This document shows positions 8,001 to 63,276 of a stretch of DNA of 64,000 bases, piece after piece. Source of the stretch: Vermamoeba vermiformis (Eukaryota); contig JBEWZL010000003.1 of NCBI GenBank assembly GCA_045837725.1, positions 310,001-374,000 of the forward strand. Direction: 5' to 3'. A model generated the notes under the pieces. That model made no database searches. It had not been told where the DNA came from and worked only from the letters and a program-made list of their open reading frames with translations. How positions within the stretch are numbered: the first letter of the stretch is position 1; each line of letters opens with the position of its first letter. Position numbers and translations under genes: made by a program.

Positions 8001-9536
8001 ATGAACAAGCTAATATTATTGTTGAGCGTTATCAGCGTTGCATTGGCTGGCCGGTACTGGGATCAATGGGCTGCTGGAAATGGAGGCGTTCATTCGAATC
8101 CTGTATTCAAAACTCAACCACAATTGCGTTGGACGTTTAATTTTAATTACACTTATGCGGATGGTAAGTCATTCTTAACTCACATAATTAAATCAAATCG
8201 CATCTGATGGGATCTGATTTTTTGTTCTTCAGGTGTTCTTCCAATCGATAACCAAGAACATCAGCTTTATATGGTTCATGGAGAGGTAGGCCAACCTGCC
8301 TATTGGAAGTTTTCGTGGGGTGGTAAAATCCTGGCCTCGTGGGATTCGCCCTTCAAAGATATCAGGATCGAAGGAACGATTGGATCGCGCAACGGCGTCG
8401 TTTATGTTTACACTGGATATATGAACACTCTATTCGCTATCAACGAGACTACTTTGGAGCAGATCTGGAACACAACGAATCTCGTATCTAGTACCAACCC
8501 TTATTCGAACAGTCCGCTAGAATGGAACGAAGATTACTCTATTCTTTATTTATCGACTGCCAATCAGATCCACGCTATCAATGCTGCAAATGGAAACATT
8601 ATTTGGAGCACTCAGCCTACAGCCGGTCACACTTACTACGCGCCCCTGATCCGATCCACCCTTGACAATACATTCGTGGTCAAATACTACAACAACTCTC
8701 TGGTCAAGTACAACATTACCAATGGCCAGGTCGTGTGGGCCAAGCAGCTGCAAGGAATTAATTGGGCCACGACACCACCACCTACCGTTGATAACACCGA
8801 CGGAAGTATCTACGTCACGACTTTTTCGGTGTGGATCTACAAACTGGACATCAACGGAAATGTCGTCTGGTCTCAAACTGACGGAAATGGCAGCTTCAAT
8901 TATCATTCCCCAGTGTTATTCAGCTCCGAATACGTGTTAATTTCAGGCACTAATGGCTTCATGAAACTTTATAATACCACATCTGGCGAGTCGGTCAGTG
9001 TCTTCAAGTACGAAGTCAATGGAACTGCATTGCAAATGTTCTCGCAGCCGTTGTTCAACAGAGAAAAGAACGTGCTCTACATTGTGTACTTTGAGACTAG
9101 TGCACTTGTGGCCCTGGACACGAGCAACATGTTCAACTTCACTGTCATGTGGTCACTTGACACGCTGTTAAACATCTACGGTGGCGCCGGTCCTTCGATC
9201 GCTTCCGATGGCACTATCTTCATGGCGAACACTGACAGCGAATCGGCAGTTGGCCTCGTTTCGATCGGTTGTCCAGTCACGAAACAACTGTCAAGTGATG
9301 GCATGTCGTGTGTTTGTGCACCAGCCTTTGTCACATCAGGAGACTCGTGCGTGTGCTCTGATAACACAAAAGAGCCTTCAGAAGATGGTTTGAGCTGTGT
9401 TGACAAGCCTGGCATTCCTCGATCTGCCGATCCCGCGTCAACAAACACACCTGCTCCAGTCAAAACCACTAGCAGTGCTGCAGCCATTGGTTTGAACTTG
9501 TTAATGATCGTAGCACTCGTAGCTTTGCAGTTGTAA
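8001..9536 (+). CDS. Secreted PQQ/BamB-like beta-propeller protein with Cys-rich tail and GPI-like C-terminus, copy 1
   Basis: Signal peptide and one intron; repeats such as IHAINAANGNIIWS and YKLDINGNVVWS; GPSIASDGTIF; hydrophobic C-terminus. Confidence 0.8.
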
Positions 9537-9836: not shown

Positions 9837-11419
9837 ATGAATAGTAAGATTCTATTTCTATTGAGCGCCACCATAAGCGTTGCATTGGCTGGACGCTATT
9901 GGGATCAATGGGCTGCTGGAAATAATGGCGTTCATACGAATCCCGTATTCAAAACTCAACCACAAATTAGATGGTCTTTCAACTATAATTATACGTACAA
10001 CGATGGTAAGCTCGGTTTAATTCTTGCGATCGACACGAATCTCACCTCGATCTTTCAGCCGTTGTTCCTATCGATAACCAGAATCGCGTTATCTATATGG
10101 CCAACGGAGAGACCGGTCAAATTGGATATTGGAAGTTCTCATGGGGCGGCCAAATCCTTTCATCTTGGAAAACTGGATTCCCTACATTCTTTGACGGAAC
10201 GCTTGGCGTCCGCAACGGCGTTGTGTTTATCTACTCTGGAAGTAAAAGGACTCTTTTCGCTGTTAATGAGACGACTACAAAGGTCATATGGAACGCAACA
10301 GATCTTGTTTCGAGTACCAACCCTTACTCGAACAATCCTCTTGAATGGAACGAAGACGACTCTATTCTTTATTTATCGACTGCCAATCAGATCCACGCCA
10401 TCAACGCTACTAACGGAAACATTATTTGGAGCACTCAACCGATGGACAGTCAAACTGCTATCTCTCCGCTGATCAGATCCACCCTTGACAATACATTCGT
10501 GGTCAAGTACTACAATAACACCCTATCAAAGTACAAAATTGCCGATGGACAGTTAGTGTGGAGAACTAATTTGGATGGAGGTGAATGGAATACGCCATCG
10601 CCACCAGCAGTAGATAACGCTGATGGAAGTATCTACTGCACAACTTGGCGCTCCGGAGTTTACAAACTAGATATCAACGGAAACATCGTCTGGTCCCAGA
10701 CTGACTCCACTGGATGGTTCCGTTACCATTCCCCATTGTTATTTAACTCCGAATATGTGATGGTCCCTGGTACTATTGGTGGCATCAAACTTTACTCAAA
10801 ATCAACGGGCGACTCGCACGATGTCTTTACATACGGCTTTGACTATGCAAACAACATTGCCATGCAAGTGTTCACGCAGCCGTTGCTCAACAAAGAAAAG
10901 AACGTGCTGTACATTGTCTACTTCACGACTGCATCACTTCTGGCCCTCGACACGAGCAACGTGAACAACTTCACTCTCATGTGGTCAGTTGACACGCTGT
11001 TAACAAAACACAGTGGCAGCGGCCCGTCGATCGCTTCTGATGGCACTATCTTCATGGCAACAGCTACGCGTGATTACCCCGTTGGCCTCGTTTCGATCGG
11101 TTGTCCAATCACGAAACAACTGTCAAGTGATGGCATGTCGTGTGTTTGTGTACCAGTCTTTATCGCATCAGGTGACTCGTGCGTGTGCTCTGATAACACA
11201 AAAGAGCCTTCAGAAGATGGCTTGAGCTGTGTTGACAAGCCTATCGTTCCCAGCGATGCTTCGCCATCATCGTCTTCATCACCCTCCTCGCCCGTAACTC
11301 CTGCTAGTACTAACACTCCAGCTGGCAATAAGACACCCAATTCATCAATCACGAGCAATGCAGTGGCTGTTGGTGTCAATTTGACTGTTGCACTTGCACT
11401 CATAGCTGTGCTGTTGTAA
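9837..11419 (+). CDS. Secreted PQQ/BamB-like beta-propeller protein, tandem paralog copy 2
   Basis: Same architecture and intron position as 8001-9536, with extensive visible identity. Confidence 0.8.
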
Positions 11420-23111: not shown

Positions 23112-25518
<2,407 letters not shown>

Positions 25519-58247: not shown

Positions 58248-61200
58248 TTACGAGGACGTTTTTGTGCTTGATTTTTCGCGTCCAATTTGCAGCTGAGTAA
58301 ATCCACAGTCTCGCAGCGTGTCCAATTCATCTTCAGCCATGGAATTGATGCACAAGGTCGGTCGAGTGCCAGTGACAGCTTTGATATTTTTCACGACAGT
58401 CTCGTCAAATTGCAATTTGATGCCGTCCAGCGAGACAATTTTCATTTGTTTCGCGTACTTGAGCACACTCAGCAACAACGGTGCGCCGTTTGTAATTTTT
58501 TCACACCAACTGATGTCAATGTGCTTCAACAGCGGGGACCAGCGGACCATGTACTTCACAGCGGCGAGTGACACTAGTGACTTGTGAAGCCGCAACACGC
58601 GCAGAGTGGTGCTGTAGAGCGGTGTGTCGATGGAGGTGAAGTTGAGATTGAGACAGGTCAGTTTTTTCATCCACGGCACTTGTCGCGCCAGTTCGGGCTG
58701 GAATGGCACGGCAACGAGACTGAGATGCACCAAATTTGGACATTTTTTGGGCAAGCCGCGGATGAGGTCATCTGGAACAAAAATCAGTCACGTGACAAAA
58801 AATATTTGCAAAGTATTAACGTACCTCCAATATTTTGATTTCCATCGAGAATTAACTCTCGCAGAACTGTGCCACAGATATTTAGGAGTTGCATAATACC
58901 TTCGCCTAAAAAGGAAATGTTAGCATGATATAGCATTCCAAATTAGGTAATTCGTACCGGTGACTTTGTAACAGTAGCCGAGTCGCAGTGAAGTGACATT
59001 TTGACACTTTGGCGCTAATTTGAGCAACAAATTGTCATCGAGTATAGTGCTGCCATCAAAATTGAGACTTTCAATGCCATCACCATATTCAGCGATGAAT
59101 TGAATGTCCTTTGCTGTCACATTGCCCAGGGACTGCGACAAAATGATTTCAAAACAGGACTGGAACACTGATGACGTGAAGGGTCGTTTTGAAGCAATCA
59201 TGTCCACCACGAGAATTTTCACGGCGTCTTTGTTCTTCAAGGCACGGTACACGCGCAGTGTCTTTTCAATGAGGGCCGAGGCATAGCGCGTATCTTCGAC
59301 ATTGTGCGCCATTTCAATGCACACGTCTGCAAAGGCGTTCAACAGGGCCTCACTGAATAAATGACATTAGCACTAGGCATTGTGTGACACGTGTCAACCT
59401 GACCCCGACCAGAAAAATACAATTTCACATAATTTGGAAAATGTTAAGAATCAGACAAAAAAAATTTTAAATCGCCGATTGAGTCATAAGCTGGTCGTAT
59501 CAACGTGAGCCGAAAGATTAGCAGTCTTAGGCTTTAGTTGATTTTGCGCAGTACAAGTGTGCTACCATTACACCACAGGACCGAAGGCCCCGCCAGGAAT
59601 CGAACCTGGACCTCTCGATCAGGAGTCGAGAGATGTACGCGCAGAGAACCAGCTCGTGCAGACATGAGAGCGGCGCAAGGTGGTCGTGCGCGTTAAAGGA
59701 AGTCGTTCAAAAGTTAGATCGGTTTGACACGTGAAAGATATTCGTGTGACACGTGTCAAAGTTTGACATGCCACTACGTACCTTCCAGGATTGATCAACA
59801 AGGACGCTTGGAGCAGTTCTTGACTCTGTTTGTACAGTCGATAGCGCTCTTGTGGCTGAATGAGCATCTTTGCAGTTATTCTGAAGGCCTGAGCCTCCGC
59901 GACAGACACAATTGGCAACTTTTTGATGCGCGGTTGTAACGAGACAATGTCCGGTGAAACAAACACGAATTCACGGCGATGATCTTGCAAGTCTTCGAGC
60001 GCTGTTTCAGAGAACCGAATTCCCGTCATTTCCTAAAAAGGAAATGTCAGTCTTAAGCACTTGCGTAAAATAGTGTCGCTTACTTGAATGCGTGTGAAGA
60101 CGCGGTGAATGCCTGTTGCCATGATCATGTAGCGCAGTGGACATTGCACAATTTCACCGAGCTTGGTCTCGTCCAACGAGCCAGGCAGTGCGGTGCTGAC
60201 GCAGGGACAGCTGAGCTCTTGTTGTTTGCAGTCACAGTACGCGGCACCTCTGTTCAGCTGTGCACTGCGCGAGACTGAATGACCTTTTTTGGCGTGACAT
60301 TCTTGCGCGCATACCGAGCAAATACCCTGCAAAGATTAGATTTACTAATTTGGAAAGTGGGTGCGTGCTTACTTGTCCGCCCATCAGACCACACGTGTAG
60401 CATTCGTGCATTGCAATCGGCACTTGTTTGTCACCGACGAATATAGCAGGACACACGTGATTAATAATTGCAAAACCTAATTATACAAAAGGTGAGCACG
60501 TGTAATGATCTGACTTTCCATAAAGGCAATCGTTACCTGCTTGTATGACGGGTGTTGGTGCTTCAGCGACTAGCTCGGAGTGTGTCGGGAATCCAGGGAA
60601 ATAGACCGAGAGTCGCTTGTGAATCTCGTTCCAGAGATCAATCGTGTGCGAGGCGTAGTTGAAATTTCCCAGCAATCGATTGAACACGTCAATCAGGACT
60701 TCTCGGTACGGTTCTTGAGACAGGACCCTATAATCGAGTTAATAGATGTGTATAGTATTATCAATAGTTCTGTCGTACTTTTTGGACCGTTTAGTCTCGC
60801 GCAAGAGCTCGCGAATGTAATTCTTGATGCCACGTGCCACCATCTCAATCAGCAGCAACTGTTTGAAGAACGATGATTGCATGTTCTTGCGCACCACTGC
60901 TAAATATCTAGCGCATAACATTAGTTTAAAAAATTCCCGATCCAAAATAAAAATTAAATCTCACCTAGTATTGACACCTTGTGCGCGTAAGAAATGAGTG
61001 ACTTCGAATGCGTTAGTCATAGTCTCCGTCATTTGGCGTTGGATCATCGTAGCTATTTTAGGAATGCTCGAGTTCAACAGATAATCCGTCGCTGACTTGA
61101 CCGCGTGCTGATGTTCGAGTCGATTGGGGTCATTAACGTCAAAGCGAGGACTGAACGCATCTGTCGGTTTGAAGTGTCAGTGCCGAGTACATATTAATCC

Positions 61201-63276
61201 ACTATGTATTATACTTACCTGAACTCAGTGCTTTGTGATACTGGCGAATGAACTCGGGTCTAAACAGGCGGTACAAAAAACAACTGCGCAGTGATGGCAC
61301 GGGCAAGGTCGGGGGCATTAACCGTGCTAAATCTACGACACAAAAGATTAGTTTCAGTTCTACGCTGCTTTTAAGGCAATATTACCTAATAAGTAAAATC
61401 TCCCATCCTCACCGCGATGTCCTTCAATATCCACAGGAAATCCAATCGTCTTGCTGTCCTCTACTGTCATGCCAGCCACGTGTGGGGCTAAATTTAGCCT
61501 CTTTGACAGCTGTCAAACAGAGTGTCAGCCGGACAATCAATCAATGGCCGTGAAAAAATTATTTACCTGATCCATCACTTTGTTGACTTCAATGTCATCA
61601 GCATGAACGTATCTATATAAGAAGTGTTATTAATAAGAGTTAGTTAATAAAGTCTAATGTCACGTGCCTGCCACCGTCAGACGAGCCGTAAATGAGTGTG
61701 TTGTCTGAGACTGGCAACAACGACATGGCGATCAAACGAAAGCCTAGATAATCGATCTGCAAATATCACTGTCGGTCAGTAAATGGACGAGCACGTGATT
61801 GTGATCGAGTACAGCGTCGTACCAGCGTCATTAATGGCGTGCAAATGGCTTCCATGTCACAGTTTTGAACTGTCATCAAACTCAACATTTCATGACTCGC
61901 TGCCTAGATGATGCATTGACATTAGTAACTATAATATTTATATATATATAGGCGCGTCTATTGTTGTCATATCGTGCGTACTTTCATGGCCTCGTGATCA
62001 CCGCCGTAAATGCCTTTCCAATCAGTTGCAAATTTGAACAAAATTCCATTGTAAATGTATTTCTCACCTACAATAAAATATTAATATAACTCCATAGTAA
62101 CATATCTCTATTGTTAATCTAATAATATGACACGTGTCATACCGCCGGCGTTTCCTCCGAGATTAGTGAATGGTTTAATCGTTCTATATTTAGCAGGCAC
62201 GAACACTTCTGATATGATAATGCGACCGTATGTTTGGGCTGCGAATAAATAATTAATTAATTATTTTCCAAATAAGGAAAAAAATTAAAAATAAAATCAT
62301 AATTTTCTAATTATGGCTCATACCAGCGTGTTCAAAGTTCTGCGCGACAGTTGCAATGGCTTTAAATCTTTTGGCGCGCAGTTCAGCGTTATCTTGCGGC
62401 AATCTCAAACATTGCTGATATTCTTCGTTCCAATCACGAGGTTCTCCGAGCTCGGGTCCAATCTCATCGCTCATTCTTTGCAAAGTTTCCAATTCTTTTG
62501 TCTAAAAAAGGTAATCGTTCAGTGAATACAAAGCCTTGTATAACTTTGCAAAAATTTTCTTACCGAATCATTCAATGAGGCCTTCAACAAATCCAACTGT
62601 TCCTTATATAATATCACTTGTCCATTATCACTATTACTCTGTTCACTCGTATTCAATATGTACGACAAAGTTTTGAAAAAGTCAGTGCTGATCTTCATCG
62701 TAGTATTAATGATTTCTTTTTGTTTTTCCGCGTTGATGACACTCGTCTCAAATGTCGTGCTGCTAGTCAATGTTGTCGCTGGTCTCGGTGATATCGGCAA
62801 TGATTTAGTGCGACTCAATTGATGCGAAGATCTGAGCACGTGAGGGGTCGTCGGAGAACCTCCGTGACTGCTCGTTGAAGTCGTGTTGGTGCCACTGACT
62901 GATTGCGATCGACTCGGGGAAAATTCCGAGAAATCAGCGGACAACTCATTGCTCTCCTGGTACATGTATCCTATTGATAATTATATTATTAGATTTATTC
63001 GAAAAAATTAAATTAAATTTTGTATGATATTATACCTTTATACTGCGAGGCTCTTTGTGCTTTAGCCAAACATTCGCGCAATATTTCAATATTTTCATTG
63101 CTCATTAATCGTCTATTGCGCACTTGGATCTCATTGTTGCTGTTAATTGAAGAGACAGATCCAGGACTTGGCGTGACTGGAAAAGTAGCTTCTTCATTGT
63201 AATTATATGAACCAATCGATGAAGAACTCGATGTTAATCCACTGGTCGAATAACGAGAGCTGTGATCGTCTGCCAT
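58248..63276 (-). CDS. Clu-domain protein with UBR-box-like Zn finger and C-terminal LRRs (start uncertain)
   Basis: Clu RDWNEEYQ, YGRIIISE, GGEKYIYNGILFKFA, IDYLGFRLIAMS, GEDFTYYLVDLARL and LRAQGVN; UBR-like HECYTC..ICSVCAQECH..YCDC; LRRs CQNVTSLRLGYCYKVT. Confidence 0.85.
59465..59692 (-). ncRNA. Intronic structured RNA containing a circularly permuted tRNA-like domain
   Basis: The minus strand reads hairpin, then T arm (CCAGG TTCGATT CCTGG), CGGGGCC TTC GGTCCTG, TG and D arm (GTGT AATGGTA GCAC). This is enclosed by long-range helices and followed by T8. Confidence 0.75.

Follow-up and report, generated by a model that had tools for sequence, protein, structure and literature searches.

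In the current study, we characterized a tRNA-like element in an intron of the amoeba Vermamoeba vermiformis. The intron interrupts a CLU-domain gene in a 64,000-nt stretch of contig JBEWZL010000003.1 (positions 310,001 to 374,000), which we call the window and within which all coordinates below are counted unless another record is named. On the minus strand, the intron carries the parts of a tRNA in circularly permuted order, and this arrangement is found again, with covariation, in at least 56 distinct sequences from phages and metagenomes. Our best reading, to which we give about an even chance, is that the element specifies a stable tRNA mimic of the YrlA design, probably a product of RNA polymerase III that arose from a tandem tRNA pair. 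The design, a loop-closed permuted tRNA mimic, is already known in bacteria and phages. What is new is to find this design in the nuclear intron of a eukaryote, with its anticodon-type arm closed, a chain that exits between tRNA positions 26 and 27 (26/27) and a setting within a putative RNA of ~220 nt.

The first-pass annotation of the window had described permuted tRNA parts on the minus strand, and on re-reading the sequence every one of its coordinates proved right. The parts follow in the order in which the minus strand is read, with the sources that place them (R1 is a covariance model described below).

59630-59614, minus strand: anticodon-type hairpin CTCGA-CTCCTGA-TCGAG, which corresponds to the 'V' stem-loop of YrlA (sequence, ARAGORN, model R1)
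59613-59610, minus strand: connector AGGT (sequence)
59609-59593, minus strand: T arm CCAGG-TTCGATT-CCTGG (sequence, Rfam, ARAGORN, model R1)
59592-59586, minus strand: 3' acceptor strand CGGGGCC (sequence)
59585-59583, minus strand: acceptor loop TTC (sequence)
59582-59576, minus strand: 5' acceptor strand GGTCCTG (sequence)
59576..59592, minus strand: the loop-closed acceptor stem as a whole, 7 bp, 2 of them G-U (sequence, Rfam, ARAGORN)
59575-59574, minus strand: TG linker (sequence)
59573-59559, minus strand: D arm GTGT-AATGGTA-GCAC (sequence, Rfam, ARAGORN, model R1)

The two acceptor 7-mers pair at 7/7 positions. Since two of these pairs and a third in the D stem are G-U, only the minus-strand RNA forms every pair. 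The letters that make the tertiary contacts of a tRNA (U8, A14, A15, U48, G18, G19, T54, T55, C56 and A58) are all in place, as had been claimed for the elbow. When 59582-59558 was joined to 59630-59585, ARAGORN called the re-ordered 71 nt as tRNA-Arg(cct) with four stems free of mismatch, U33 and a purine at position 37; in native order it made no tRNA call. The re-ordered core thus has 21/21 stem pairs intact and keeps all elbow contacts. As it lies in the intron, the acceptor stem is closed by its 3-nt loop, so the RNA would have no free end for charging.

In the arrangement that we propose, the intron would carry a gene for a structured non-coding RNA of ~220 nt built around this circularly permuted core. 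A 10-bp helix, leading into a long, interrupted terminal stem, would carry the chain in and out of the core at the gap between D stem and anticodon-type stem. The element most probably originated as two head-to-tail copies of a Gln-like tRNA gene, of which one set of parts was kept and the rest remodelled into supporting stems. It would have its own transcription by RNA polymerase III, ending at a run of eight T residues (T8), and its RNA would offer a tRNA elbow for recognition by a protein that binds tRNA or is of the Ro60/TROVE type, as in bacterial and phage YrlA. Transcription, 5' end, stability, partner protein and function are all what we infer for this RNA. The Gln-like body suggested by the first-pass annotation appears plausible: among the loci retrieved by the pattern search described next, L047 contains a real tRNA with a TTG anticodon loop that shares the 5' acceptor strand and the D arm with the element.

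Metagenome and viral contigs were searched with a pattern consisting of a T loop, 18-30 nt and the window's D arm, which matched at least 119 metagenome loci and at least 118 viral loci. Among the 238 matches listed, acceptor pairing was 7/7 in 65 and 6/7 in 26, where chance would give well under one match with such pairing; the other 147 pair at 5/7 positions or fewer and look like ordinary, tightly packed tRNA genes. The same matches comprise 67 distinct closed-acceptor sequences (window included). In 51 of these, a perfect hairpin of 5 bp precedes the T arm at a distance of 3-5 nt; real tandem tRNAs account for at least four of the 51. For the analysis of covariation, eight likely tandem tRNAs were dropped, six by a crude filter for a tRNA that continues downstream (L185, L004, L047, L072, L074, L094) and two by eye (L205, L015), while L221 and L189 were filtered and then restored (alignments A1, A2). 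The resulting set holds 63 sequences, 56 of them distinct.

Within these 63 sequences, both partners vary at 5/5 pairs of the hairpin that precedes the T arm, and 96.6% of its cells are paired, against 75.1% after shuffling and 43-61% when the partners are slid. Covariation in the acceptor stem was discounted, acceptor pairing having served as the filter. A covariance model of the 63 sequences with the window left out (R1) scores the window at 75.2 bits (E = 1.3e-19) over its full length (model positions 1-80) with no non-standard pair, a score that is partly circular, as the training set was fished with a window-derived pattern. The same model aligns the window's real tRNA-Thr in part only, its positions 4-41 falling on the anticodon and T arms, so the YrlA-type 'V' hairpin sits where a tRNA has its anticodon arm. 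The anticodon-type loop of the phage set keeps a C-U start and an A-A end, and its middle triplet varies between near-identical sequences; this variability fits a kept fold and not codon reading. Among the loci fetched from the metagenome scan, nothing matched the window beyond the tRNA-like core, and a tighter pattern found nothing in viral contigs or prokaryote genome contigs. The search also brought to light a large phage subfamily of closed-acceptor mimics that lie within tRNA arrays (L140, L141, L146, L153, L168, L174, L193 and many others). In the L140-type members, the acceptor loop reads TTGGTC, CAGCAA is conserved upstream, the terminal helix covaries, and the middle triplet of the anticodon-type loop differs between near-identical members.

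A clear match to a known Rfam family was also looked for, and only sub-threshold matches to tRNA, YrlA and mascRNA appeared. At gathering thresholds, no family matched the native order. In E-value mode, the tRNA family reached 25.5 bits (E = 0.0046; gathering score 29) by using GGTTCTC at 59650-59644 as the 5' acceptor strand, and YrlA (RF02553) reached 24.4 bits (E = 0.0067), with model positions 30-81 covering the T arm, the closed acceptor and the D arm. The third match, to the mascRNA family (20.1 bits, E = 0.17), is to an RNA that resembles the element in having a tRNA-like fold within a longer polymerase II transcript (mascRNA / MEN-beta, RF01684; threshold 42.5 bits). In contrast to the element, however, mascRNA and MEN-beta are not permuted and their acceptor is open; RNase P and tRNase Z free them from the transcript.

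The closest design is that of YrlA, in which stem-loops V, T, AS (the closed acceptor) and D stand on a stem that carries the motif GNCGAAN0-1G, and whose gene lies no more than 4 kb from that for Ro60, in the same orientation (PMC4201824). A further study describes the majority of YrlAs as closed-acceptor, circularly permuted tRNAs, and cites a dimeric-tRNA origin model for them (10.1101/312249). In the element, too, a 'V' hairpin, T arm, loop-closed acceptor and D arm follow one another on a stem of flanking strands (PMC4201824), and the letters of the tRNA tertiary contacts are kept as well. It differs from YrlA in lying in a spliceosomal intron of a eukaryote and in its length, ~220 nt as compared with 114 positions in the YrlA model. 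In Salmonella YrlA the chain exits via the anticodon stem and there is no anticodon loop, whereas the element keeps a closed anticodon-type arm (5 bp, 7-nt loop) and exits at 26/27. M. smegmatis YrlA also has a 7-bp acceptor-like stem; unlike the element, it is bacterial and linked to Ro60. It is reported to undergo RNase P cleavage, trimming and CCA addition (10.1101/312249), and by analogy such a cut and CCA tail are a possible fate of the element's RNA. In the literature consulted, we found no permuted tRNA or YrlA-like RNA of eukaryotic nuclei, amoebae included, besides the algal permuted tRNA genes; the supplements of Chen 2014 might list variants with a closed anticodon arm.

Among the matches listed, the RNA closest to the element is that of L221/L048, with 82% identity over 72 nt and the same CTCGA/TCGAG stem, about one third of these positions being fixed by the search pattern. 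In a complete phage record, this RNA is followed 2.6 kb downstream by a TROVE gene in the same orientation:

125,628-125,703 of the 150-kb phage record, plus strand: L221/L048 RNA
128,287-128,973 of the same record, plus strand: TROVE gene

Like the element, it has a CTCGA/TCGAG hairpin with a 7-nt loop, a 4-nt connector, an acceptor closed with a TTCG-type turn, and an outer helix that encloses the core. It is unlike the element in being a much shorter RNA and in its setting, a phage record with tRNA arrays, a transfer-messenger RNA (tmRNA) and a TROVE gene. Rfam scores L048 as YrlA over its full length at 35.7 bits, also below the gathering score of 69. Among the viral records listed with such RNAs, 4/10 have TROVE, as do 4/6 of those at least 90% complete, versus 1/5 of control records with tandem tRNAs only (0/2 of the complete ones). 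Two complete phages of the most common mimic subfamily have no TROVE gene. In another record, of 499 kb (G008, the record of L171), an R1 match of 39 bits at 274,663-274,757 (minus strand) lies 1.1 kb from a TROVE gene at 272,620-273,540 on the same strand; the best of the 11 R1 matches in that record is 60 kb away.

Around the core, the intron offers further pairing. The first-pass annotation had reported a 10-bp supporting stem with one bulge, outer helices and a T8 run, and each of these is present as it described them.

59457..59676, minus strand: putative RNA of ~220 nt, its 3' end set at T8 and its 5' end taken from the closing helix (fold, X4 contigs)
59675-59671, minus strand: closing helix CGCCG with CGGCG at 59477-59473 (sequence; the minimum-energy fold shifts this pairing)
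Between the closing helix CGCCG/CGGCG and the inner helix, minus strand: helix TCATG with TATGA (sequence)
59654-59648 / 59495-59489, minus strand: helix AGCTGGT with ACCAGCT (sequence)
59646..59655, minus strand: 5' strand GAGCTGGTT of a 9-bp helix with GACCAGCTT at 59496-59488 (minimum-energy fold)
59644..59650, minus strand: GGTTCTC, an apparent worn second copy of the 5' acceptor strand, from the first tRNA unit (Rfam tRNA alignment)
59643-59634, minus strand: 5' strand TGCGCGTACA of the supporting stem, pairing with TGTAC-T-GCGCA at 59555-59545 (sequence, fold)
59499..59542, minus strand: second long hairpin (minimum-energy fold)
59464-59457, minus strand: T8 run, likely a polymerase III terminator (sequence, comparison with window genes)

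The minimum-energy fold of 59700-59457 has -81.5 kcal/mol (z = -4.4), and 0/200 shuffles fold as well. In the Rfam tRNA alignment, GGTTCTC pairs with CGGGGCC at 6/7 positions. Inside the second hairpin lies a 4-bp stem with the 7-nt loop CTGCTAA (59528-59514, minus strand), which has U at its second position and A-A at its end, like an anticodon loop; this small hairpin may be a relic of the second tRNA unit. The T8 run directly follows the terminal stem, 94 nt past the D arm and after the further hairpin, and upstream, where permuted tRNA genes are expected to have a TATA-like element, TTTAA stands at 59697-59693. The tRNA-Thr and 5S genes of the window end in T7 and T6, respectively, and runs of T8 or longer occur at 0.17 per kb per strand. 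Because the T8 run is like the ends of these genes and so rare, an independent polymerase III transcript is favoured.

The host intron is bounded by transcript data from a close relative (X5, ~98% identical). Two X5 contigs end at 59354 and 59782 with loose ends that continue into the opposite exon, which fixes the intron at 59353-59781. Its length had been noted as far greater than that of its neighbours, and this is borne out by the X5 splice ends and by introns of 52 and 53 nt downstream and ~50 nt for the two upstream. The CLU domain is recognized in an upstream exon at 61360-61512 with 31.3 bits (cut-off 24). A 5S gene, a tRNA-Thr gene and a gene for a mitochondrial-type ATP synthase beta, all in the window, identify it as eukaryotic nuclear DNA.

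59353..59781, minus strand: host intron of the CLU-domain gene, 429 nt, GT..AG (X5 transcript contigs, sequence)
59759-59744 and 59397-59382, minus strand: two copies of the 16-nt direct repeat TTGACACGTGTCACAC

The TTGACACGTGTCACAC copies flank a 346-nt segment that contains the RNA, and deleting this segment with one copy would leave a 67-nt intron, near the usual size for the gene. The arrangement looks like an insertion with a duplicated target; a poly-A tract or other mark of a mobile element was not seen at the flanked segment.

Diverged sequences of the element were found in X4, a water-metagenome run that contains the window's own strain and a diverged strain. A 205-nt contig (record 5) covers 59506-59706 with the parts in the same order, and this independent sample refutes a misassembly of two ordinary tRNA genes, a concern raised in the first-pass annotation. 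It carries 6 listed substitutions and 2 indels. Position 16 of the D loop and position 59 of the T loop change from U to C, the acceptor loop from TTC to TAC, the pair U6-G67 to U6-A67, and one junction A to U. The anticodon-type loop is reduced to 6 nt by one substitution and a 1-nt deletion that alter its triplet, and 4 nt are inserted in the linker that joins the D stem to the supporting stem, both strands of which are kept. No difference is listed across 59623-59706, which includes ~30 nt upstream of the putative start. The substitutions keep the structure in 6/6 cases by the cloverleaf reading and in 5/6 by the unedited minimum-energy fold, which counts one loop change as breaking a C-G pair. 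In all, record 5 differs from the window at 7/201 letters (6 of the 7 are listed), whereas the intron flank 59355-59457 differs at 11/~102 with several indels (Fisher p = 0.018); the exons differ at 8/260 and 5/198 (~3%). Over 59534-59456/7, another two X4 contigs align with 3 and 6 differences; they could represent paralogues or orthologues of greater distance. Both diverge right past the T run, so conservation stops there. The pattern of changes suggests structural constraint, short of proof.

Constraint of this kind bears on a more modest history, in which tandem or duplicated tRNA genes are decaying in the intron and the permuted look is an accident of which halves survive. The layout is what a dimeric tRNA would leave, and the worn acceptor copy GGTTCTC still stands upstream; the 16-nt direct repeat around the 346-nt segment suggests an insertion, the element's transcript is putative, and the intron has no Ro60 motif. 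A dead remnant would not, however, be expected to preserve exactly one complete set of parts in perfect condition (21/21 pairs and all elbow contacts), with its sister halves worn beyond recognition. Self-alignment of the two presumed tRNA units is marginal, 14/500 shuffles scoring as high. The diverged copy, moreover, alters loops and linkers or keeps pairs, and changes more slowly than the intron flank, and remodelling has turned the flanks into a 10-bp helix and a terminal stem with T8 at its end. We therefore regard decay as rather unlikely, albeit the strongest of the competing explanations.

Less probable still, in our estimation, is that the element acts in cis within the host pre-mRNA or is cut from the spliced intron, for example as a handle for RNase P and tRNase Z like mascRNA, with no independent polymerase III gene. 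It does lie within the intron on the same strand as the host gene, the order of its A and B boxes does not suit an internal promoter, and the weak mascRNA-like match (20.1 bits, E = 0.17) points the same way. Such a role would leave unexplained why T8 falls exactly at the end of the terminal stem, where conservation stops, and why ~30 nt upstream of the putative start are without a listed variant difference. Furthermore, the acceptor is closed by a loop, so a single RNase P cut would free no tRNA-like piece.

A true circularly permuted tRNA gene would have its transcript circularised or joined at 26/27 and then opened in the acceptor loop to yield tRNA-Arg(CCU). Such genes occur in Cyanidioschyzon, prasinophytes, the Bigelowiella nucleomorph and Thermofilum and resemble the element in that the 3' half precedes the 5' half, the acceptor loop contains a short spacer, the A and B boxes are inverted and a T stretch follows downstream (PMC3978253). 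They differ in having a bulge-helix-bulge at one of the known junctions (20/21, 37/38, 50/51 and 59/60) and in maturing via a circle into charged tRNAs, and the element differs from them in the extra structured RNA between its tRNA part and the terminator (PMC3978253). The element's sole possible junction, 26/27, is outside the known positions and thus lacks precedent (PMC3978253). No 4-bp central helix can be formed there for any placement of the bulges, in agreement with the first-pass annotation, which could build no bulge-helix-bulge; a pre-tRNA is therefore unlikely. Its argument from the tiny spacer carries little weight, spacers of 1-74 bp being known (PMC3978253). Indeed, the precedent of 1-bp spacers, the T run downstream and the acceptance of the re-ordered sequence by ARAGORN as tRNA-Arg(cct), with U33 and a purine at 37, are what speaks for a permuted gene. 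Beyond the missing helix and the novel junction, the variant copy (a single low-depth contig) has a 6-nt loop and a changed 'anticodon', the 'anticodon' triplet of the phage relatives varies freely between near-identical sequences, and the T run is separated from the D arm by 94 nt with a hairpin and the terminal stem. Taken together, these features make a functional permuted tRNA gene very improbable. The preference for a mimic over a pre-tRNA that had been voiced earlier consequently stands as regards the absent bulge-helix-bulge, the junction at 26/27, the 6-nt variant loop, the YrlA-like layout and the phage RNA of this layout near a TROVE gene; it is less well served by the score below the YrlA gathering threshold and the missing Ro60 motif.

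Several observations weigh against the reading as a YrlA-type mimic transcribed by polymerase III, in addition to the partial circularity of the R1 score. The YrlA match is partial, at 24.4 bits versus a gathering score of 69, and the metazoan Y_RNA family (RF00019) gave no match at E up to 10 in 59300-59850. The motif GNCGAAN0-1G is absent from the whole intron, the nearest sequence being CACGAG at 59658-59653 with 3/5 specified letters, and the metazoan motif GGUCCGA is likewise absent from the intron. When two phage TROVE proteins were run by tblastn against the 64 kb, a weak search for this gene, no match had an E below 3.7. With its B box ahead of its A box, the element does not have the arrangement of a standard internal polymerase III promoter, and an independent upstream promoter is putative. 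With regard to constraint, X4 has a depth of ~3.5 and its contigs may be either orthologues or paralogues; the counts are small and the choice of structure was partly post hoc, and by the minimum-energy fold the chance of at least 5/6 tolerated substitutions is ~0.1. Finally, two RNA-seq runs under the same species label as the best-matching DNA run (X21, X23) gave 0 and 6 reads over 58900-60100, in exons only. The 6 reads are only 90-95% alike to the window, and both runs are uninformative on expression; the libraries are probably from a different strain or a cryptic species.

Other features of the window deserve brief mention. A palindrome, GACACGTGTC, occurs mostly within TGACACGTGTCA and is found 7 times in the 64 kb, where 0.03 copies are expected:

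11544, 30915, 37472, 39561, 59386, 59748 and 62129 of the window: copies of the palindrome GACACGTGTC

Copies are often near CACGTGTCAA and lie in short introns or intergenic sequence, and the palindrome may be a widespread binding site for a protein in this genome. As a candidate promoter for the RNA it was rejected: it is also present in ordinary 50-110-nt introns and intergenic sequence, and is absent upstream of the tRNA-Thr and 5S genes. Besides this palindrome, no second copy of the element was found in the window. The ATP synthase beta genes of close relatives are 95-97% identical to that of the window. One of them, on a 531-kb metagenome contig (P0004), is 96% identical to window 23112-24416; this long contig, from a close relative, is where the orthologous intron may be found. 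Elsewhere in the window, two tandem paralogous open reading frames (8208-9536 and 10010-11419, plus strand) encode secreted-looking proteins of the PQQ-type beta-propeller class with Ser/Pro-rich tails and a hydrophobic end; their nearest clusters in a protein atlas are bacterial, with scores below 0.8.

Animal and bacterial Y RNAs share Ro60 as a partner, and the tRNA-shaped module is found in the bacterial and phage ones only. How these two groups of Y RNA are related is the question on which the element bears. Tentatively, and at less than even confidence, we extend the reading by analogy with the bacterial and phage RNAs: the element may be expressed as a Y-like polymerase III RNA, the first YrlA-type mimic beyond bacteria and phages, which would have evolved independently from a tandem Gln-like pair and would serve Ro60/TROVE or an enzyme that handles tRNAs. 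Its acceptor would possibly be opened by RNase P and given a CCA tail, resulting in a two-piece, tRNA-shaped particle. Even if the intron holds merely a decaying tRNA pair, it would still be a clean snapshot of the first step of the dimeric-tRNA origin. If the mimic is real, it would be a living example of the dimeric-tRNA origin proposed for Y RNAs, it would mean that the YrlA plan can arise in eukaryotes, and it would provide a handle on which protein reads the tRNA elbow in such mimics.

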